Virus record (IMG/VR): IMGVR_UViG_3300006145_000007
Span: 40,400-104,399 of that record
Source of the DNA: a virus
Lineage: Duplodnaviria > Heunggongvirae > Uroviricota > Caudoviricetes
Length of the DNA stretch: 64,000 nucleotides
Direction: 5' to 3' (one strand)
The translations under genes and the position numbers were made by a program. Positions 671-40,567 of the stretch are shown here, one piece after another; position 1 is the stretch's first letter, and every line of letters begins with the position of its first letter. A model generated the notes under the pieces. The model worked only from the letters and a program-made list of their open reading frames with translations, did no database searches and was not told the origin of the DNA.

Positions 671-2935
671 ATGCCTATTCTTGGAAATTTCCCCGCTGGT
701 GGCGGTGGAGGCGGCACAGGCGGACTGGCATTGGCGGCGGTGACTAATATCGCCACCGTAACCGCGCACGAGAAAGTGTATGTCAGTTGGACTGACCCGA
801 ACGATCTGGTAGTGGCAGGCTCTACTCTGGCCGCGTGGGGAGGCACCCTGCTGGTGCGTAAGGCCGGCAGCGCTCCCGTGAGCCGCAGGGACGGCACGGT
901 TGTTCTTGACAGCAAGACACGCAACCAGTACAGCACTACCTACTTCTGTGATTCCGGTCTGACTGACGGCGTGACGTACTACTACAAGTTCTTCCCCTAC
1001 ACTACAAGCAGCACGTACACAGACAGCACGGACGATGAGTTCACCGCGACTCCTGCCGCTGTCGCCCCAGGTAATGTGTCCGGCATGAGCGCAGTCGCTG
1101 CCGGTAACGGGAAGATCACTGTGCAGTGGGGTGACCCAGCCGCCACTGTTGTGACGGACGGTATCACCGTGTCCACCTGGGCAAGCACGCAGGTCGTGTA
1201 TAAGGCCGGGAGCTATCCGACTGACCCGTCAGACGGCACACTGGCACTGAACAGCACCACACGCAACCAGTATGCCACCAACGGCTTTACCATTACCGGG
1301 CTTACGAACGGTACCACCTACTACATCGCCTTCTTCCCGACATCTACCGACGGCGCCGTGAACACCGATACAGCGAACCGCGTGGCCGGTGTTCCGAACC
1401 GGCTCGTCATCAACGATATCCCCGCGCAGAGCGGGGCTCTGACATACAATAAGTCTCCGCAGAACCCAGTGTGGGACAGCGCATATAACCCCGCCATCAT
1501 GACACTGGGCGGCGAGACTGTCGGAACCAACGCGAAGACATACGTGGCTACGTTCACCCCGGATGACGACCATGTATTCGCCGGCGAGACAGCACCGAAG
1601 GCCAAGAATGTATCGTGGGTAATCGGCAAAGCAACCGGTACACTGACGCTCACACCAGCTTCTCTGGTTCTGGACAAGACCACGACAAGCGCAACCTTCG
1701 CCATCTCCGGGGACTTCGATGGCAGCTACACTGTCACGTCGATGGATACCAGCATTGCAACCGTGGCTCTGGTGAGCGGTAAGACATACCGTGTCAGCAG
1801 TGTGAACAGCACGACCGGCACCGCTTCTATCAAGGTGAGCTGCTCGGGCGGCAGCAACTATACCGCCCCCGCCGACAAGTCTGTGAGTGTGACAGCGAAG
1901 TTCGTTACCATCTATGGCGTGAGCTGGGATGGTTCGAGTACCACGAAGTGGTCTCGTACAGATGCATCAGCCAGCTTCACAGATCCTGTGCCTGCTGTTA
2001 GCAATGGGAACGGCAGTTCCCCGTTCGACAGCCTGCAGCCATGGGCCGGAATGGTCAAGGATACTTCTGACAGCGCTGCCGGCGTTCTGGTGAAGATTCC
2101 GAAGTTCTGGTACAAATGGACAAAGAGCGGCAATACGTTGAAGCTCCAGATTGCAGACGGTCAGGTGGACGGGTTCAATGTTTCTCCCGCGCACGCCAAC
2201 AGGGGCGATGGCAAGGGTGAGCGCGACTTCGTTTACGTTGGGCGGTATCACTGCGCGAGTGGGTATAAGTCCACCACAGGCGCCGCACAGCAGGTAAATA
2301 TTACACGGTCAACAGCGCGTTCCAGTATTCACAATTTGGGTGCAACCATTTGGCAGTTCGACTACGCTATGCGCGTGACGATTCAGATGCTCTATCTGGT
2401 CGAGTTCGCCGATTGGAACTCTCAGGCAAAGATCGGCTACGGCTGCTCTGCCGGTGGCTCCAAGGAGAACAATGGCAAGACCGATGCTATGCAGTATCAC
2501 ACTGGTACTACTGCGGCAAACCGGACAACCTATGGCTACACGCAGTACCGCAACATCGAAGGTCTGTGGGACAACGTTTACGACTGGATGGATGGTTGTT
2601 ACTACAACGGTAACGGCATGAACATCATCATGAATCCCGCCAATTTCTCTGACTCTTCTGGCGGGACTTTGATCGGTAAGCCTTCCAGCGGTTGGCCTTC
2701 TGCTATTGCTGTGGCTACCGCAAGTGGTCTGGAGTGGGTGATCTACCCCACTGCGGCAAGCGGTTCCGAAAGCACATACGTCGCGGATGACTGGTACTAT
2801 AACGCTTCCTACCCGTGCCTGTTCTGTGGGGGTGACTACGGCCAGTACCAGAGCCACGGGTTGTTCTACGTGTACTACAACGGCGCCAGCAGCACGTACG
2901 CGTACATCGGCTGCCGCCTCCAAAAACTCCCCTAA
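671..2935 (+). CDS. tail fibre / receptor-binding protein, DGR target: Gly-rich N-terminus, two FN3-like repeats, Ig-like segment, FGE/DUF1566-like C-type-lectin fold C-terminus carrying the variable region
   Basis: RBS AAGGAG at 657-662; repeated motifs ..TRNQYSTTYFCDSGLTDGVTYYYKFFPYT.. and ..TRNQYATNGFTITGLTNGTTYYIAFFPTS.. (FN3-like); C-terminus ..DDWYYNASYPCLFCGGDYGQYQSHGLFYVYYNGASSTYAYIGCRL is matched by a downstream template repeat. Confidence 0.85.
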   Translation: MPILGNFPAGGGGGGTGGLALAAVTNIATVTAHEKVYVSWTDPNDLVVAGSTLAAWGGTLLVRKAGSAPVSRRDGTVVLDSKTRNQYSTTYFCDSGLTDGVTYYYKFFPYTTSSTYTDSTDDEFTATPAAVAPGNVSGMSAVAAGNGKITVQWGDPAATVVTDGITVSTWASTQVVYKAGSYPTDPSDGTLALNSTTRNQYATNGFTITGLTNGTTYYIAFFPTSTDGAVNTDTANRVAGVPNRLVINDIPAQSGALTYNKSPQNPVWDSAYNPAIMTLGGETVGTNAKTYVATFTPDDDHVFAGETAPKAKNVSWVIGKATGTLTLTPASLVLDKTTTSATFAISGDFDGSYTVTSMDTSIATVALVSGKTYRVSSVNSTTGTASIKVSCSGGSNYTAPADKSVSVTAKFVTIYGVSWDGSSTTKWSRTDASASFTDPVPAVSNGNGSSPFDSLQPWAGMVKDTSDSAAGVLVKIPKFWYKWTKSGNTLKLQIADGQVDGFNVSPAHANRGDGKGERDFVYVGRYHCASGYKSTTGAAQQVNITRSTARSSIHNLGATIWQFDYAMRVTIQMLYLVEFADWNSQAKIGYGCSAGGSKENNGKTDAMQYHTGTTAANRTTYGYTQYRNIEGLWDNVYDWMDGCYYNGNGMNIIMNPANFSDSSGGTLIGKPSSGWPSAIAVATASGLEWVIYPTAASGSESTYVADDWYYNASYPCLFCGGDYGQYQSHGLFYVYYNGASSTYAYIGCRLQKLP
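2779..2921 (+). repeat. DGR variable region (VR) at the 3' end of the tail fibre gene
   Basis: 143-bp near-identity to 3274-3416; 17 substitutions, 16 of them where the other copy has A; variable codons are AAC in the partner copy. Confidence 0.85.
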
Positions 2936-2946
2936 AGGAGGGGCGT

Positions 2947-2968
2947 GGGGAGGGTCGCAACCCTCCCC
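2947..2968 (+). promoter_or_regulatory. GC-rich hairpin (9-bp stem GGGGAGGGT/ACCCTCCCC, 4-nt loop CGCA) 26 nt downstream of VR; DGR homing hairpin/cruciform candidate
   Basis: Perfect inverted repeat read directly; position and size match hairpins reported 3' of VRs in DGRs. Confidence 0.55.
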
Positions 2969-3056
2969 ATCATGCAGCCTAACGAACAATTAAATGGCGG
3001 TAATCGCCATAAGCAACCATGACTTCCTATGTAGACGAAGACACCATATGCTCACA

Positions 3057-3083
3057 GGGGGGGGGGGGGGGGAAAGGGGGGGG
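3057..3083. repeat. homopolymer tract G16-AAA-G8 in the VR-TR spacer (with C9 at 3116-3124)
   Basis: Read directly from sequence; potential G-quadruplex or slipped-strand tract, or a sequencing/assembly artefact. Confidence 0.9.
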
Positions 3084-3273
3084 CACCAAATTGGCCCGTT
3101 CGGCGGGACACGCAACCCCCCCCCATGAGAGGCGGCGTCTTTGGACACGCTACACCCCTCCATGTGAGGCGGTGTCTTTTTGCATCTACACACAATTCAA
3201 TCGCATAAACGGCATGTTTTATACATGCCACGGGATTGCCTACGCAGCAGTCGCTGGTTCTTTTAATTGGTGC

Positions 3274-3416
3274 CGTCGCGGATAACTGGAACTATAACGC
3301 TTCCAACCCGTGCCTGCACTGTGGGGGTAACTACAACCAGAACCAGAACCACGGGTTGTTCTACGTGAACTACAACAACGCCAGCAACACGAACGCGAAC
3401 ATCGGCTGCCGCATCC
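3274..3416 (+). repeat. DGR template repeat (TR), adenine-rich (AAC codons) copy of VR
   Basis: Homologous to 2779-2921; carries A at nearly all positions that differ in VR; lies between target gene and RT as in canonical DGRs; the 69-aa ORF 3236-3445 is just the TR read in frame. Confidence 0.85.
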
Positions 3417-3655
3417 TTGTTTTCGCCAGACCTCACCAGAGGTAACGGGCGAGTGCTTGGTTAGCACAATTTCGGTAGAACGGGCTCCTCACCCTTTCTA
3501 TAAGGGCTGTCGTGCGTATATCGCACGGCACCCTTGGCGCGGGCAATCGCGTGCCCCTTGGCAAAGATTAACCGATAGGACATGGGTTAGTACCTCCTGT
3601 GAAAGCGGGACGTGGGAAAGCTCATGAGGTTACAAGGAGGATATTGTAACTCCTT
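3417..3655 (+). ncRNA. TR-RT spacer, probable structured 3' part of the DGR template RNA (priming region)
   Basis: Several local palindromes (CGTGCGTATATCGCACG, GGCGCGGGCAATCGCGTGCC); no ORF; position equivalent to the Sp region of the BPP-1 DGR RNA. Confidence 0.35.
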
Positions 3656-4771
3656 ATGAAACGTACAGCACATCTATACGAAGAACTCATTTCCCACGAC
3701 AACCTGATGCTCGCACTAATTGAGGTAAACGCGAGCCACAGGTGGCTCCCTAAGCACAGGCCAAACAAAATTGTTGCATGGGTCGAGCAGGATATGGAAG
3801 CCCGTGTGAATGAGTTGAGAAAGATCATCGAACAGATCGTATACCACAAGAGACAGCTATCCAAACCAAAGCAGAAGCAGCGTTACGATAAGAGCGCAGG
3901 CAAGTGGCGCATTATCAACGAGCCGAAGCTGTGGCCCGACCAGTATATCCATCACGCACTCGTGCAGGTGCTGCAGCCTACCATGATGCGTGGGATGGAC
4001 AGGCATTGCTGCGGAAGTATCAGATCGCGCGGTATCCACTACGGCAAGAAGAAAATCGAGAAGTGGATGGATACGGATGCGCGCGGAACGAAGTATTGCG
4101 AGGAACTCGACATACATCATTTCTACGACAGTATCGACCCGAAGTACATTATGGCTCGGCTCAGATGCCTTATCAAGGATTGGCGCGTGTTGAAAATCTG
4201 CGAGGAGATCCTGCGTTACGGCGTGCTGATTGGTCTTTACACATCCCAGTGGTTTGCGAATACACTCCTGCAGCCACTCGACCAACTCATTCGAGACAGC
4301 GGATTCTGTACTCACTATCTCAGATATATGGATAACTTTACCATATTCGGGAGCAACAAGAGGAAACTCCACAAGCTGAGAAAGCTAATTGAAGAATGGC
4401 TTGCAGAGGTCAATCTGTCGTTGAAGGAGAACTGGCAGGTGTTCCCGACTAAGAGCCGTATGCCATGCGCGCTTGGATACAGATTCGGTAGAGGCTATAC
4501 CTTACTTAAGAAAAGGAACCTGTTCCGGTTGAAGCGGAAGCTCAACGAGTATTACAGGCGCCGGCGGAAGCACAGGAAGATCTCTGCAAAAATGGCAACA
4601 GGTCTGATCTCAAGGCTTGGTCAACTCAAGCATTGCAGCAATAAGAATGTCTATGAAAAGATCTATCACGGCAAGGTTCAAAGAGAACTGAAGCAAGTGA
4701 TTCGAAATGATATGCGAAAGGAGCGATTAACGTGGAGTATGTATTTGGAACAAACAGCTATAGCGGCGTAG
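3656..4771 (+). CDS. DGR reverse transcriptase
   Basis: RBS AAGGAGG at 3636-3642; DGR-RT hallmark motif GLYTSQWFANTLLQPLD (cf. Brt SLTSQLFANVYGG); motif A ..IHHFYDSIDP..; motif C reads LRYMDNFTIFG (YMDN instead of YMDD). Confidence 0.9.
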   Translation: MKRTAHLYEELISHDNLMLALIEVNASHRWLPKHRPNKIVAWVEQDMEARVNELRKIIEQIVYHKRQLSKPKQKQRYDKSAGKWRIINEPKLWPDQYIHHALVQVLQPTMMRGMDRHCCGSIRSRGIHYGKKKIEKWMDTDARGTKYCEELDIHHFYDSIDPKYIMARLRCLIKDWRVLKICEEILRYGVLIGLYTSQWFANTLLQPLDQLIRDSGFCTHYLRYMDNFTIFGSNKRKLHKLRKLIEEWLAEVNLSLKENWQVFPTKSRMPCALGYRFGRGYTLLKKRNLFRLKRKLNEYYRRRRKHRKISAKMATGLISRLGQLKHCSNKNVYEKIYHGKVQRELKQVIRNDMRKERLTWSMYLEQTAIAA

Positions 4772-5016
4772 AGACTCTGCGTACAAAGGGGAGCGAGCAC
4801 ACAAATTTCGATGGGTTCGTTGAGACGGTGCAGGAGTTCGATGACAGCACCATCACAGATACCTTCCATGTTGTCAGCAAGACAAAGTCCGATGATGACG
4901 CAGAAGGTAACTGCTATGACTGGTACATCATTGACAAACACAACCGTGTCATCGACAAGACCAAGCGCCTGAAGGCGAACATCGACGTGCTTGCCGCGAC
5001 AATTCTGGAGGGGTAA
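4732..5016 (+). CDS. hypothetical acidic protein
   Basis: 94-aa ORF with GTG start overlapping the RT 3' end; no recognisable domain. Confidence 0.35.
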   Translation: MEYVFGTNSYSGVETLRTKGSEHTNFDGFVETVQEFDDSTITDTFHVVSKTKSDDDAEGNCYDWYIIDKHNRVIDKTKRLKANIDVLAATILEG

Positions 5017-5018
5017 CA

Positions 5019-5609
5019 ATGACAATGAAGATGGACAAGAATGATGTGGCGCGCCTGTATGAGAATCGTATGATCTCTGCCGTCGGCGTGCTGAACGCGA
5101 TCCGCAGCAAGTGGATCACCACCGAGGATGCGGTTGAAATCCTTGGGTCAGACAATGCACTCAGCGTCATCAGATCCGCGAAGCTCCAGGAAATCTCAGA
5201 GGCGTGCAACAATACAATCGTTGCCGGCATCGACGTGGTGATCGGCGACCGGACTGATCACTTCAACCTCGCTCTGGAGGATCAGAGCAACATCAATAAC
5301 TTGTTCCGCGTCGTGGAGCTGGGCGGTACTGAGTACCCATACCAGGCAGACGACGGGACATGTACCGTGTATAGCAAGCAGGAAATCGTTCAGATCTATA
5401 TCGCCGCCCAGACTCACATCACGGTCAACACCGCGTACCACAATGCGCTCAAGGCGTATCTGCTGTCTCTGGAGGACACCGATGTGATCGGCGCAATCGA
5501 GTATGGTATGGAGCTTCCTGCGCCATACGCCGAGGAGTTGGCTACCAAGCTGGGTGTCGCCGAGAATCAGATGCAGATGATCGTGGCGAAGCTGAGCGAG
5601 GTGGGATAA
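5019..5609 (+). CDS. hypothetical protein
   Basis: 196-aa ORF, coding-like composition, tight spacing with flanking ORFs. Confidence 0.5.
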   Translation: MTMKMDKNDVARLYENRMISAVGVLNAIRSKWITTEDAVEILGSDNALSVIRSAKLQEISEACNNTIVAGIDVVIGDRTDHFNLALEDQSNINNLFRVVELGGTEYPYQADDGTCTVYSKQEIVQIYIAAQTHITVNTAYHNALKAYLLSLEDTDVIGAIEYGMELPAPYAEELATKLGVAENQMQMIVAKLSEVG

Positions 5610-5759
5610 CTATGCACACCAAACTGGTGGAGATACTTTCGGATATCTGCATCAGGCAGGCGTCTGTCATCAAAGACCAAGCATTTGCTCTCGCTGCACT
5701 GGGAGCGGAAGTACGAGAGGACGAGGCGGCTGCTTTGCGCGACCTCCTCCGTTCTCTGA

Positions 5760-6230
5760 TTGGAGATTGGAGTGATGATGATGGAAAAGAGTAAGCTGAG
5801 CAAGTGGGTGCTTTCCGGGCTTCTGTGGGTGTTCGGCGGCACCCTCTACTTCTATATGGAGGTTATGTGGAAGACGCTGAACAGCAGACCAGAGTCAATC
5901 AGTTGGACGATGCTGACACTGGCGATGATCCTGTGCATCCCTCTTGAACGATTCGGGAGTGAACTGCCATGGAACTGCCCACTGCTTTTGCAGGCGTCCA
6001 TCTGTACTGTAGCAATCACAGCAACCGAGTTTATCGCCGGGTGCATCCTGAACCTCTGGCTCGGCCTGGGGATTTGGGACTACTCAAACGTCCCGTTCAA
6101 TATCCTTGGGCAAGTGTGCTTGGCGTTCTCCGGCGTATGGTTTGCGCTGTCGATCTTTGCAATCATTCTGTTTGACTGGATACGGTACATCGTGGAGGGC
6201 GGAGAGAAACCGCATTATCGCATTGTATGA
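5760..6230 (+). CDS. integral membrane protein (3-4 predicted TM helices)
   Basis: Hydrophobic segments LSGLLWVFGGTLYFYMEVMW, TMLTLAMILCIPL, VCLAFSGVWFALSIFAIILF. Confidence 0.5.
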   Translation: MEIGVMMMEKSKLSKWVLSGLLWVFGGTLYFYMEVMWKTLNSRPESISWTMLTLAMILCIPLERFGSELPWNCPLLLQASICTVAITATEFIAGCILNLWLGLGIWDYSNVPFNILGQVCLAFSGVWFALSIFAIILFDWIRYIVEGGEKPHYRIV

Positions 6231-6641: not shown

Positions 6642-7664
6642 ATGGGAAGAAAGACGACTCGGAGTATGGCTGCTACGCCTGAGAAGCTGGCAGAGGTTAA
6701 CCCAGAGAACATGCGGCTTAAGAAAGAATTTCTTGGCTACCTGAAATCTCTGAGCCGATCCAGCGAGACAATCAAGGTCTATGACTCCGACCTCAACATT
6801 TTCTTCTGCTGGGCGGTGGACAATGCCGCTAACAAGTTCTTCGTGGATGTGAGCAAGAGAGACATCGTGGCGTTCCAGAACTACATGCTGGAAGCCGGCT
6901 GCTCCGCTGCAAGGGTGCGGCACCTGAAAGCCGCGCTGTCATCTCTGTCCAACTATATCGAGAACATTCTCGATGACGAGTTCCCGAACTTCCGGCCCAT
7001 CATCCGTAAGATCGAGAACCCAGCCAATGAGGCGGTGCGTGAGAAAACCGTACTCACCAAAGAGCAGGTTCAGTCCTGCCTGGATCATCTGGTCGAGCAT
7101 AAAAAATTCAAACAGGCGTGCTTCTTTGCTTTGGCTGCCTACTCTGGCAGACGCAAGGCGGAGCTTGCACGCTTCAAGGTAACGTACTTCGACGACGCCA
7201 ATATTATTTGCGGGTCGCTCTATAAGACGCCTGAGAAAATCAGGACAAAGGGTCATGGGAGAAACGGCAAGATGCTGACCTGCTATACGCTGTCCAAGCC
7301 GTTCAAGCCCTATTTCGATCTGTGGATGGAGGAAAGGAAGCGCCTCGGTATCGAGAGCGAATGGCTGTTCCCAGATGTGCATGACACTACAAAGCCTATC
7401 GGGGTATCAACAATGAACAGCTACGCAAACAGCTTCTCCCGGATCATGGGCGTTCCATTCTACATGCACGCCCTCCGACACTTCATGACATCTGAACTGG
7501 CGAGAGCTAACCTGCCTGACTCCGCAATCCAGATGCTGATCGGATGGGATAGCGCAGATATGGTTGGCGTGTATAAGGACATTGACGCTGACGAGGAGTT
7601 CAGCAAGTATTTCAAAGACGGTGAGATCGTAGCGCAGAAGGCTACGAGTATTGAAGACCTATAG
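6642..7664 (+). CDS. tyrosine site-specific recombinase, XerC/XerD-like (second recombinase in window)
   Basis: N-terminal SAM-like core-binding segment (..LKKEFLGYLKSLSRSSETIKVYDSDLNIFFCW..), catalytic R (..YSGRRKAE..), HALRH box and C-terminal ..MVGVYKD.. tyrosine. Confidence 0.8.
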   Translation: MGRKTTRSMAATPEKLAEVNPENMRLKKEFLGYLKSLSRSSETIKVYDSDLNIFFCWAVDNAANKFFVDVSKRDIVAFQNYMLEAGCSAARVRHLKAALSSLSNYIENILDDEFPNFRPIIRKIENPANEAVREKTVLTKEQVQSCLDHLVEHKKFKQACFFALAAYSGRRKAELARFKVTYFDDANIICGSLYKTPEKIRTKGHGRNGKMLTCYTLSKPFKPYFDLWMEERKRLGIESEWLFPDVHDTTKPIGVSTMNSYANSFSRIMGVPFYMHALRHFMTSELARANLPDSAIQMLIGWDSADMVGVYKDIDADEEFSKYFKDGEIVAQKATSIEDL

Positions 7665-10566: not shown

Positions 10567-10761
10567 ATTTGCATGGAATTATGGGGAGCTTTGTGGATTT
10601 ACATATCTGAAATGTTTTGAAAAACGAGATATGTTGGGCTTTATTGAGCTATATGTGGGTATGAAAAGTTCGGAAGTCCCACGATGCCAAGTTTCATAGT
10701 TAACTTCAGCTCCTTCAAAAGTCCTGATTTTTCAAGGGGTTCGGGGTTCTGTCATTCGGTG

Positions 10762-10792
10762 TTGACACAGAATTGACACAGTTTTGACACAG
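10762..10792 (+). promoter_or_regulatory. three direct TTGACACAG repeats abutting the int stop codon (arm-type sites, proximal arm of attP)
   Basis: Exact 9-mers at 10762, 10773 and 10784, 11-bp phasing; same motif as the 10546-10566 cluster 215 bp away. Confidence 0.5.
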
Positions 10793-10794
10793 TT

Positions 10795-11985
10795 TCATAG
10801 TGAGACCGTCTGTCTGTGCTGCTCGAACTGCCTGACCCCGGCTGCCAAAGACTCGTCTGTGACATGGACGTATCTGTCCATGGTGGTCTTGATGCTGGCA
10901 TGTCCCAAAAGTTTTTGAAGGGTCTTGGGCTGCATACCAGACTCGATGCAGCGCGTGGCATAGGTGTGCCTGAGCGCGTGCATACAGAACCGTGCGATAC
11001 CGTTTTCATCACAGACTTTATAGATGTGCGTGTCGTAGCTGCTGTTCTTTGTCGGCATCCCTGTGCGGAAGTTCAAAAACACCAGCTCCGCCATAGCAAA
11101 CTCTCTCTCGTCGCCTGTGCGCCGGTCGATGTACGTCAGCCGTTCTGACAGGGACGGAGACTGCTTGCGAAATTCTTTTGTGGCTTGGACGGCTCTTAGG
11201 ATGTCATAGGCTCGATCTGTCATCGGAAGTGTGCGGTAGCTTGCTACGGTCTTGGGCGGCCCAGCTCTCCATTGCCCCTGCTTGTGACGGTACTCCAGCG
11301 TCTTGTTGACTGTGAGCGTGCGCTTCTCCCAGTCGATTGCGTCCCACGTCAGACCAATCATCTCACCGGTACGGAGTCCAGTCTCCAGAACGAGAGCATA
11401 CTGGAAGTAGTTGTGGGTACTCCTGCACGCCTCCAGGAACCTGTCCTGTTCTTCCACGGTCAGGAAGTGAATGTCGTCTACGGCGCGGACAGGCTTTGTA
11501 TAACGTACCCCGTCCATAGGATGCACGCTTATCATCCCATTCATCTTTGCCGCCTTGAACATAGACCCCATAGCGATGTACGTCTGACGGATAGTTGATC
11601 CTGCATAGTCGGCTTCCATCCGGTTGAGTATCATCTTGCAGTGCATGGGTTTGACATCTGACAGCTTCATTGCGCCGATGACTTCCTTGATGTTGTGACA
11701 GTACCGTTCCCTATAGTTCCGCTTCGTGTTTGGTGACAGACCGCCGAGGAGTTGGTCATGCCAAAACGAAAACCACTCGTCTACCGTCATGCTGCTTGAG
11801 ACAACGGGCGTCCCATGTTTCTCCTTATACTTAACTTCCTCTAACCAGTTGCGAGCGTCTGGGAGGGAGCGGAAGTATTTCTCAAACAGTCCACCCGTCT
11901 TGCTCTCGTACCTTACATAATAGCGCCCATCCTTTCTCTGACATATTCCTTTGCCACATTCTTTGCCTTTAAGGTTTTTGCCCAT
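10795..11985 (-). CDS. int: phage integrase, tyrosine recombinase (lambda/P4-like)
   Basis: N-terminal arm-binding-type domain; catalytic ..HALRHTYATRCIESGM.. box and ..LLGHASIKTTMDRYVHV.. tyrosine. Confidence 0.9.
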   Translation of the reverse strand: MGKNLKGKECGKGICQRKDGRYYVRYESKTGGLFEKYFRSLPDARNWLEEVKYKEKHGTPVVSSSMTVDEWFSFWHDQLLGGLSPNTKRNYRERYCHNIKEVIGAMKLSDVKPMHCKMILNRMEADYAGSTIRQTYIAMGSMFKAAKMNGMISVHPMDGVRYTKPVRAVDDIHFLTVEEQDRFLEACRSTHNYFQYALVLETGLRTGEMIGLTWDAIDWEKRTLTVNKTLEYRHKQGQWRAGPPKTVASYRTLPMTDRAYDILRAVQATKEFRKQSPSLSERLTYIDRRTGDEREFAMAELVFLNFRTGMPTKNSSYDTHIYKVCDENGIARFCMHALRHTYATRCIESGMQPKTLQKLLGHASIKTTMDRYVHVTDESLAAGVRQFEQHRQTVSL

Positions 11986-40279: not shown

Positions 40280-40567
40280 CTAATCTTTTGTATAAATCCC
40301 GCCAGCAATATCAAGGTCGCCAACCGCCCGTATACCGAAAAGCCTAATAAATTTTTCGCCCTCCCACCAGTCATACAGAAACTCGATGTCGTCAAAATTT
40401 ATAGGGCTTGCAATCTCCTTATGCAAGTCAAATGTATTGCCGTCATATGAAGTTCCTATCGAAACAATAACCGTATCTGTGATATCATTGCGCTTCCAGT
40501 ATCTTTGAATGTACTCTCCTATTGCGTCATAACCAGATTGACCTTCTTTTAGTTTAATCTCAATCAT
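40280..40567 (-). CDS. hypothetical protein
   Basis: 95-aa ORF. Confidence 0.4.
   Translation of the reverse strand: MIEIKLKEGQSGYDAIGEYIQRYWKRNDITDTVIVSIGTSYDGNTFDLHKEIASPINFDDIEFLYDWWEGEKFIRLFGIRAVGDLDIAGGIYTKD

Follow-up and report, generated by a model that had tools for sequence, protein, structure and literature searches.

An apparently avd-less diversity-generating retroelement with a YMDN reverse transcriptase on a phage tail-fibre gene

Introduction

The prototype of the diversity-generating retroelements (DGRs) is that of Bordetella phage BPP-1, with the order mtd-avd-TR-brt, TR being the template repeat; such Avd-dependent elements form Architecture B. DGRs devoid of avd are also documented: according to Wu et al. 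2018 (PMC5758913), 26% of DGRs have no avd, Architecture A (29%) has no accessory gene and one lineage is avd-free, and Avd-independent homing was inferred by these authors. The nearest isolated phages, i.e., Butyrivibrio phages Arawn and Idris and Lactobacillus phage LBR48, carry compact avd-less elements with the order target-TR-reverse transcriptase (RT). The element described here is located in a stretch of 64,000 nucleotides (hereafter the window), which corresponds to positions 40,400 to 104,399 of the IMG/VR virus record IMGVR_UViG_3300006145_000007 (Caudoviricetes). It is almost certainly a complete avd-less DGR, carried among the tail-fibre and lysis genes of a temperate gut phage of Clostridia type, and its RT, with the catalytic motif YMDN, works without Avd.

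The comparison with the described systems can be summarized as follows: (i) the window element has the target-TR-RT order of Architecture A, without avd, HRDC or another accessory gene, and the text of Wu et al. 2018 (PMC5758913) mentions neither a YxDN catalytic variant nor the RT-18 RNA found here; (ii) Arawn has 111-nt repeats, 9 of 9 mismatches at A and the SQWFAN motif, as in the type of the window, but the RTs of Arawn, Idris and LBR48 are 34-35% identical to the window RT, have a canonical YMDD and are accompanied by no RT-18 match; (iii) BPP-1 has avd whereas none was found near the window DGR, its spacer RNA is RT-10 instead of RT-18, its hairpin loop is GRNA instead of CGCA and its RT has YMDD instead of YMDN. 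Moreover, the identity between the BPP-1 and window RTs is low, and Mtd resembles the fold of the window target less than TaqVP does. Tail-fibre DGRs of phages are textbook biology, of which this is one more well-documented example. The element is an ordinary case of the known accessory-free architecture on a tail fibre with a C-type-lectin (CLec) fold; the YMDN site is the unreported part.

Results and Discussion

The repeat pair and its adenine bias

Positions 2779-2921 (variable repeat, VR) and 3274-3416 (TR) are direct repeats of 143 nt with 88% identity and a start-to-start spacing of 495. A repeat search thus recovers the pair at the place given in an earlier note on this DNA, which was made from the sequence alone. 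The likeness between VR and TR falls off abruptly just beyond the repeat at either side. Column by column, the two copies show 17 mismatches, and the TR base is A in 16 of them and C in the last one, in agreement with the count of that note. The changes from TR to VR are A>G (8), A>T (7) and A>C (1), the non-A one being C>T at TR 3317. As the TR contains 41 A within 143 nt, the hypergeometric probability of this adenine bias is P = 2.3e-9. One of the adenine mismatches (2918/3413) is a fixed difference, described below; once it is set aside, 15 adenine changes are ascribable to mutagenesis. A scan tolerating changes at adenines gave no second VR-like copy on either strand of the whole 64-kb window.

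Two details of the earlier description must be corrected. The TR is rich in AAC codons, as stated, but there are 14 of them in frame, 12 of which differ in VR (Asp x2, Tyr x6, Gly x2 and Ser x2), instead of 13 leading to Asp, Tyr, Phe, Gly or Ser; the Phe codon of VR comes from a CAC codon of TR (CAC>TTC), a change which includes the sole non-A mismatch. In the same manner, VR lies at the 3' end of the target gene but is not its last 143 bp, since 14 nt remain between the 3' end of VR and the gene end (stop codon 2933-2935).

A scan of species-representative genomes gave 53 related loci, mostly in metagenome-assembled genomes of Clostridia and Oscillospiraceae from the guts of animals and humans. 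When each locus was compared with itself by script, the order VR, TR, RT and an adenine bias of the mismatches were seen in essentially all those having sufficient upstream sequence. In the loci of the YxDN clade (RT 47-100% identical), the repeats have a length of 138-146 nt (155 nt in the truncated locus L027) and 5-23 mismatches, 79-100% of which are at A. When the 18 tabulated loci are pooled, 263/277 TR/VR mismatches are located at TR adenines. The RT family is abundant in gut metagenomes, with >1,000 close homologues and some clusters of thousands of members.

Variable-repeat alleles and recent activity

Contigs of the same phage from other samples, i.e., L003 (ENA), L004 (Logan), L058 and L059 (both IMG/VR), were compared with the window by gapped alignment. 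Three VR alleles are found on one identical TR: the first is shared by the window and L059, the second by L003 and L004, and the third belongs to L058. The VRs of the window and L003 differ at 26/143 positions, 25 of these 26 being templated by a TR adenine. Outside VR, the upstream 670 nt, the TR and the 239-nt spacer are all identical in these two sequences, and 4 SNPs (single-nucleotide polymorphisms) are found across the ~3.2 kb of remaining target and RT coding sequence. With reference to the TR, the mismatches of the two non-window alleles are at adenines in 22/23 cases and, for L058, in 22/22 cases. The RT gene diverges by 0-2.5% among the phages bearing the three alleles. Several VR alleles beside an unchanged TR in near-identical phages are the mark that repeated mutagenic homing since the divergence of these phages would leave. 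Recent activity of the DGR is shown by the between-sample variation of VR with an invariant TR.

L004 has the VR, TR and RT of L003, yet the middle of its tail-fibre gene (L004:1-800 vs. window 1603-2383) is strongly divergent from both the window and L003. This looks like mosaic recombination inside the target gene, upstream of the CLec domain.

Between 2601 and 4771, L059 departs from the window in the VR-TR gap alone, where it has G13 and neither the substitutions nor the 37-nt copy of the window. The length of this G-tract changes with the assembly: G16 in the window, G13 in L059, G8 in L003 and L004, and G9 in L058. Since the anomalies at 3056-3141 are missing from the otherwise identical L059, they probably arose in sequencing or assembly around a homopolymer of variable length, although the homopolymer may itself be hypervariable.

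The reverse transcriptase

The RT gene starts 239 nt downstream of the TR end. Its product matches Pfam RVT_1 (E 1e-13) and PHROG 1423 (E 7e-69). Among the solved structures, 8ub7_A (328 aa) is the best match (E 6e-17); a group II intron RT (5e-9) and retron-type RTs (1e-7) come after it. 8ub7 is identified as the bRT of Bordetella phage because the numbering of its residues I181, Q187, D215 and D216 fits the published description of bRT. The hallmark LIGLYTSQWFAN is present and fits the DGR motif 4, i.e., [I/L/V]GxxxSQ; SQWFAN, which had been recognized earlier in the gene following TR, corresponds to RT residues 197-202 (nt 4244-4261). A tblastn search against deposited phages retrieves the RTs of Butyrivibrio phages, Lactobacillus phage LBR48, crAss-like phages, hankyphage-type Bacteroides phages and Bordetella phages, all of which are known to carry DGRs. 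Judged from its sequence, by the best structure match, SQWFAN and the sub-cut-off scores of the other families, the RT is of DGR type.

These scores bear on another explanation, namely that the 3' end of the gene was duplicated by chance or by recombination beside an unrelated RT of group II intron or retron type. Matches to generic group II, retron and DRT profiles do exist but they are weak and sub-threshold: 65.6 bits for the group II intron RT (NCBIfam TIGR04416; cut-off 300), 38.6 bits for the retron RT St85 model (NCBIfam; cut-off 235) and 36.9 bits for Drt3a (NCBIfam; cut-off 200), all Drt families being far below their cut-off, and weak, generic matches only with the PADLOC models. The RT is thus not found among the group II or retron enzymes, a placement that the earlier note had named as contrary to its claim, and bRT is the best solved homologue. 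In addition, Rfam gives an RT-18 RNA and neither a group II intron RNA nor a retron RNA within 2500-5200, the adenine bias has a probability of 2e-9, the same architecture is found in ~50 independent loci and the neighbours are tail and lysis genes. It is therefore next to inconceivable that the element is not a DGR.

Some variants of the RT were observed. The RT of L003 and L004 (L003:10001-11116, L004:2053-3168; identical to P0001, a cluster of 77 sequences) differs from that of the window, to which it is otherwise identical, by Q198K (window nt 4247). Q198 belongs to SQWFAN and is the equivalent of bRT Q187, the residue contacting the incoming nucleotide. The substitution could have lowered the DGR activity in the L003/L004 lineage, i.e., in two samples sharing one VR allele. 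Six RT homologues (P0347, P0357, P0359, P0403, P0406 and P0411) read Q-M-D-N at motif C and SAWFLH where the window RT has SQWFAN; having lost the Tyr as well as the SQ..AN hallmark, the enzymes of this sub-lineage may have degenerated or taken on another function. Finally, the Shine-Dalgarno sequence AAGGAG (3634-3639) is the exact reverse complement of CTCCTT (3650-3655), directly 5' of the RT ATG; a 6-bp hairpin affecting the translation of the RT is possible.

The target tail-fibre protein

Residues 467-752 of the target protein match PHROG 5302 «tail protein» (E 5e-37), and with a TM of 0.98 the best BFVD matches are gut-phage proteins named «Tail collar fiber protein». The homologues of the target form a continuum reaching proteins with PF12571 Phage_tail_fib or collagen-repeat N-termini. 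These three lines agree with the identification of the target as a tail fibre in the earlier note. The 754-aa protein has no sequence match in Pfam, NCBIfam or PDB. From sequence nothing was learnt on the fold: neither the Pfam searches (with the protein, its 63 homologues and more distant ones) nor the phmmer and profile searches of PDB pointed to one.

The structure of the C-terminus was modelled from a diversity-filtered multiple sequence alignment (MSA) of 106 sequences. The model obtained from a previous MSA of 63 sequences (64-79% identity) had a pLDDT of 42.5 and was not used. In the predicted structure, VR lies at the 3' end of the target on a CLec-fold scaffold of the formylglycine-generating enzyme (FGE) type, as had been anticipated for the tip of the fibre; CLec and Ig folds are the variation-tolerant scaffolds of DGR targets. 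The fold is closer to that of TaqVP of Thermus aquaticus (PDB 5vf4) than to that of Mtd. However, the sequence identity between TaqVP and the target is just 14-19%, and TaqVP is cellular whereas the window target is a phage tail fibre. Considering the tail-fibre location and the fold, the element presumably diversifies receptor specificity and hence host range. With its adenine bias, RT type, target fold and VR alleles, the locus has the anatomy of the complete DGR aimed at the C-terminus of a tail fibre that was first proposed.

The N-terminal part of the tail-fibre gene contains a direct repeat of its own (828-923 vs. 1170-1265; 342-nt spacing, 71-78% identity), which suggests two tandem homologous domains.

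The end of VR, the hairpins and the spacer RNA

The 3'-most mismatch of the pair, 2918 C in VR and 3413 A in TR, is a fixed difference across loci and not a product of mutagenesis. In this column the TR has A, T or G according to the locus, and VR has C, save for four loci in which a T occupies the adjacent column; the VR codon is Leu CTC in the loci where it was read. By analogy to BPP-1 (introduction of Wu et al. 2018, PMC5758913), the GC-rich end of VR at 2907-2921 is «IMH-like», i.e., it may act as an initiation of mutagenic homing (IMH) sequence with a difference of the IMH/IMH* type.

Two hairpins follow VR (Table 1). The DNA fold of a 71-nt segment has a minimum free energy of −18.3 kcal/mol (z −3.8), and 0/200 shuffled sequences were equally good. 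Equivalents of hairpin 1 (CTCCCC..GGGGAG) are found in other loci. Perfect GC-rich hairpins with 6 bp or more occur after VR in 14/17 loci (median 8 bp) and after TR in 0/17. The stems of the post-VR hairpins covary between loci, i.e., the sequence changes and the pairing is kept, and mostly no T-run comes afterwards. The target-recognition hairpin/cruciform of Guo et al. 2011 has a GC stem of 7-10 bp and a 4-nt GRNA loop, and is located 4-34 bp from VR. Hairpin 2 fits this description save for the loop consensus and can be considered as a candidate for such a structure.

The TR-RT spacer contains the RNA motif RT-18 (Rfam RF03021) with a score of 77.4 bits (gathering score 41.3; E 2e-13). The match covers positions 1-84 of the 84 of the model and ends 16 nt before the ATG of the RT. 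RT-18 is at the same position in 16/16 YxDN-clade loci scanned and also in L023 and L024. Another motif, RT-17, is found between TR and RT in five YxDD avd-less relatives (L026, L029, L031, L033 and L041; ~5700-6000 in each), and the TR-RT spacer of Arawn has neither RT-18 nor RT-17. A strict one-to-one association between RT-18 and YxDN was considered and is ruled out by L023 and L024, which have N-M-D-D with RT-18.

Weinberg et al. 2017 (PMC5737381) tied RT-10 to the TR-RT spacer of BPP-1 and speculated on a DGR role of other RT motifs, without assigning RT-18 or RT-17 to DGRs. Here, on the contrary, both motifs sit between an adenine-biased TR and an RT in every locus examined, and are therefore DGR spacer RNAs; these orphan Rfam motifs become annotatable as such. 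In BPP-1 the spacer (Sp) RNA provides the cis-priming adenosine and wraps the RT. By analogy, the spacer 3417-3655 is presumed to be the functional equivalent of the BPP-1 Sp RNA.

Proposed mechanism

The element would work as follows. A transcript over the TR (3274-3416) and the structured spacer with RT-18 (3552-3639) would be bound by the RT encoded downstream (3656-4771). The RT would reverse-copy the TR to cDNA with misincorporation opposite the template adenines, and the cDNA would substitute for VR (2779-2921) at the 3' end of the tail-fibre gene. Two features would steer the transfer to VR, namely its GC-rich IMH-like end (2907-2921) and hairpin 2 (2946-2969), which is specific to VR. 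Each of the 14 AAC codons could lead to any of 15 amino acids and to no stop, i.e., to at least 15^14 (~3e16) variants. These would fall on the ligand-binding face of the FGE-type CLec domain and presumably change receptor specificity. Three elements of this scheme are borrowed from Bordetella phage BPP-1: cis-priming from the spacer RNA, the part played by the hairpin, and the switching of host range.

The YMDN catalytic motif and the weighing of the evidence

The catalytic motif C of the RT is Y-M-D-N (residues 224-227, nt 4325-4336), Asn227 being encoded by AAC at 4334-4336. N227 is aligned with the catalytic D216 of bRT (R-Y-M-D215-D216), and the equivalents of D138 and D215 are retained; the canonical triad with both YxDD aspartates is thus absent from the window RT. 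The search for RT homologues gave 1,055 sequences with E below 1e-10, and the motif was read in the best 120: it is Y[MVI]DN in 120/120 (55-100% identity). In the 150 best representatives of clusters at 50% identity, 138 of which could be scored, xxDN is found in 37. It is nearly universal at >=44% identity and sporadic at greater distance, and the motif-A aspartate and the first motif-C aspartate are kept among the cluster representatives. YMDN is thus a clade-wide state and not a lesion of this copy. No mention of YMDN or YxDN in reverse transcriptases was found in the searchable literature.

It may be argued that the element is a fossil, i.e., that the cassette is intact but that this copy is inactive through YMDN or another lesion, the VR/TR differences being historical. 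N227 does stand at the position of the catalytic D216 of bRT, one VR allele is common to the window and L059 and another to L003 and L004, and the SQ motif of L003 and L004 carries Q198K. Yet the 120 closest homologues all have YxDN, an adenine-biased VR/TR pair is found in every YxDN-clade locus having enough flank, and the RT ORF (open reading frame) is clearly under purifying selection across 47-100% identity. Since adenine-biased pairs occur across the clade, the clade cannot be catalytically dead. The turnover of VR, i.e., three alleles on an identical TR with RT genes differing by 0-2.5%, together with these pairs, implies that the YxDN RT is functional. The RT of Ty1 in which this catalytic Asp has likewise been changed to Asn (D211N; PMC2148107) still polymerises in vitro. 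It must be added that this mutant is engineered, that its transposition is abolished and that it prefers Mn2+, whereas in the window clade Asn is natural, conserved and evidently functional. A fossil is, on these grounds, a very improbable explanation, and a complete and functional avd-less DGR is preferred.

Several points nevertheless weigh against this preferred explanation: (i) the second catalytic Asp is Asn in the window RT, and the mutation of any catalytic aspartate inactivates retroviral RTs, Ty1 D211N being ~200-fold slower (PMC2148107); (ii) the window and L059 carry one VR allele, and the evidence for activity comes from differences between assemblies; (iii) the loop of hairpin 2 is CGCA whereas the GRNA consensus is sequence-critical in BPP-1; (iv) the search for a TR:spacer priming duplex by RNA duplex prediction gave long, loop-ridden pairings at inconsistent positions; (v) a scan of 2850-3750 gave no sigma-70-like promoter upstream of TR; (vi) TR C3317 is altered in VR, and simple adenine mutagenesis gives no account of it. 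The terminator scan over the same range (2850-3750) gave one weak terminator-like site on the + strand (3234-3252), the others being on the minus strand.

The last of these points concerns TR 3317/VR 2822, in a CAC codon, the only non-adenine mismatch of the window. The VR base in this column is T in the window, L007, L009, L013 and L060, and A in L003 and L004; the column is unchanged in the VR of L006, L010, L012 and L058. It has been altered independently in VR in 5/8 genome or ENA loci with CAC in the TR, and in L060. The altered codon encodes Phe, Ile, Cys or Tyr, while adenine mutagenesis alone would lead to His, Arg, Leu or Pro. Three origins are possible: rare errors at bases other than adenine may have been selected, VR may preserve a trace of an ancestral TAC codon in combination with partial homing, or the error may be specific to this context.

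A stronger proposal is that the YxDN/RT-18 clade is a mechanistically distinct minimal DGR, in which one RT and RT-18 do the cis-primed mutagenic homing with no accessory protein, the D>N change altering metal use, speed or fidelity. This must be considered as tentative and slightly more doubtful than plausible. If true, this machinery would be the smallest among natural DGRs, and a useful chassis on which targeted hypermutation could be engineered. A compact unit of RT and RNA (~1.4 kb) could simplify engineered DGR mutagenesis, which now relies on bRT-Avd. The YxDN clade, large and evidently functional with a motif that replaces the near-universal YxDD, is also informative about the extent to which a natural RT requires the two-metal active site, and perhaps about the misincorporation at adenines.

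Accessory genes: avd and the 94-aa ORF

The lack of avd between VR and TR was considered unusual in the earlier note. No avd was indeed found there but the architecture is a documented one (PMC5758913), and the avd-less state is universal among the relatives of this element. No Avd or four-helix-bundle match (Pfam) was obtained in the 61 ORFs of both strands within 1-12.1 kb, the remaining 52 kb being unsearched, and NCBIfam and PHROGs gave no Avd-type match among the local small ORFs. The VR-TR gap has a length of 91-407 nt in the relatives of the clade. In the window this gap contains an 88-aa ORF (3019-3285), which was rejected as a gene: it has no family match, it crosses the G-tract and it is broken by an indel in L003 and L004.

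The 94-aa ORF at the RT 3' end requires more attention, as it might be a dedicated replacement of Avd in this clade, in which case the element would not be truly accessory-free. In most loci of the clade the ORF is kept at this place, overlapping the RT stop, whereas the genes around it vary; with the ORF as bait, a YMDN RT is found directly upstream in 78/80 viral contigs; and in deposited phages the ORF is found solely in one record, which also has the RT. Several observations point in the other direction. In L076 and L081 an intact ORF comes straight after a CLec tail-fibre gene (orphan VR), with no TR or RT. The comparison of L081 (3900-4001) with its sisters L077 (2555-3986) and L082 gives the exact absence of a TR-spacer-RT segment of 1,432 nt, so this segment is a discrete cassette that can be gained or lost, and the ORF remains intact where the cassette is missing. 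The ORF product is acidic (pI 4.6), whereas Avd is a basic nucleic-acid-binding protein, a four-helix bundle of ~128 aa encoded next to TR. In several loci the ORF is the N-terminal part of a longer ORF (214-277 aa), in the window a protein of the DUF4376 tail-fibre family comes next, and more distant avd-less relatives are without it. A role as Avd substitute is thus unlikely, and the 94-aa ORF is probably a gene of the tail module and not a DGR accessory.

Genomic context

The DGR is followed by genes for a DUF4376 tail-fibre-family protein, a small membrane protein, a tyrosine recombinase and a CHAP/amidase lysin. In L003, tape-measure-sized and other structural genes are located upstream. 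The tail, lysis and integrase neighbours indicate a temperate phage or a prophage, with the element in its tail-fibre/lysis module. The features of the locus are collected in Table 1.

Table 1. Coordinates of the features in and around the element (positions in the window).
Feature	Coordinates	Strand	Remarks
Target gene, 754-aa tail-fibre protein with VR in the C-terminus	671..2935	+	ORF, PHROG 5302, BFVD
C-terminal 324-aa receptor-binding region, FGE-type CLec fold (predicted)	1961..2932	+	predicted structure
VR (variable repeat)	2779..2921	+	repeat pair; positions varying among alleles span 2789-2906
IMH-like GC-rich VR 3' end, ATCGGCTGCCGCCTC	2907..2921	+	invariant in all VR alleles
Hairpin 1, CCCCT-AAAGG-AGGGG, across the stop codon	2929..2943	+	DNA fold
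Hairpin 2, 10-bp GC-rich stem, 4-nt loop CGCA, 24 nt past the VR end	2946..2969	+	DNA fold
G-tract region	3056..3141	.	G16, G/C-rich substitutions (T>G/C cluster), extra 37-nt tandem copy with C9 run
TR (template repeat)	3274..3416	+	41 adenines, 14 in-frame AAC; 100% identical in L003, L004, L058 and L059
TR-RT spacer, non-coding	3417..3655	+	identical in L003, L004 and L059
RT-18 RNA motif (Rfam RF03021)	3552..3639	+	covariance-model match; ends in the RT Shine-Dalgarno AAGGAG
DGR reverse transcriptase, 371 aa	3656..4771	+	RVT_1, PHROG 1423; bRT best PDB match
94-aa acidic ORF (pI 4.6)	4732..5016	+	overlaps the RT 3' end by 40 nt; no Pfam/PHROG match

With the DGR on one side and the lysin on the other, the tyrosine recombinase gene (6642-7664) is internal to the tail/lysis module; it is 60% conserved in L005 and L006. 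A second tyrosine recombinase gene (10755-11985, minus strand) stands beside a Tn916-type excisionase (Pfam E 2e-30). This integrase probably marks the end of the prophage or the start of a second element (NrdD, Pol III alpha, DnaB, capsid gene).

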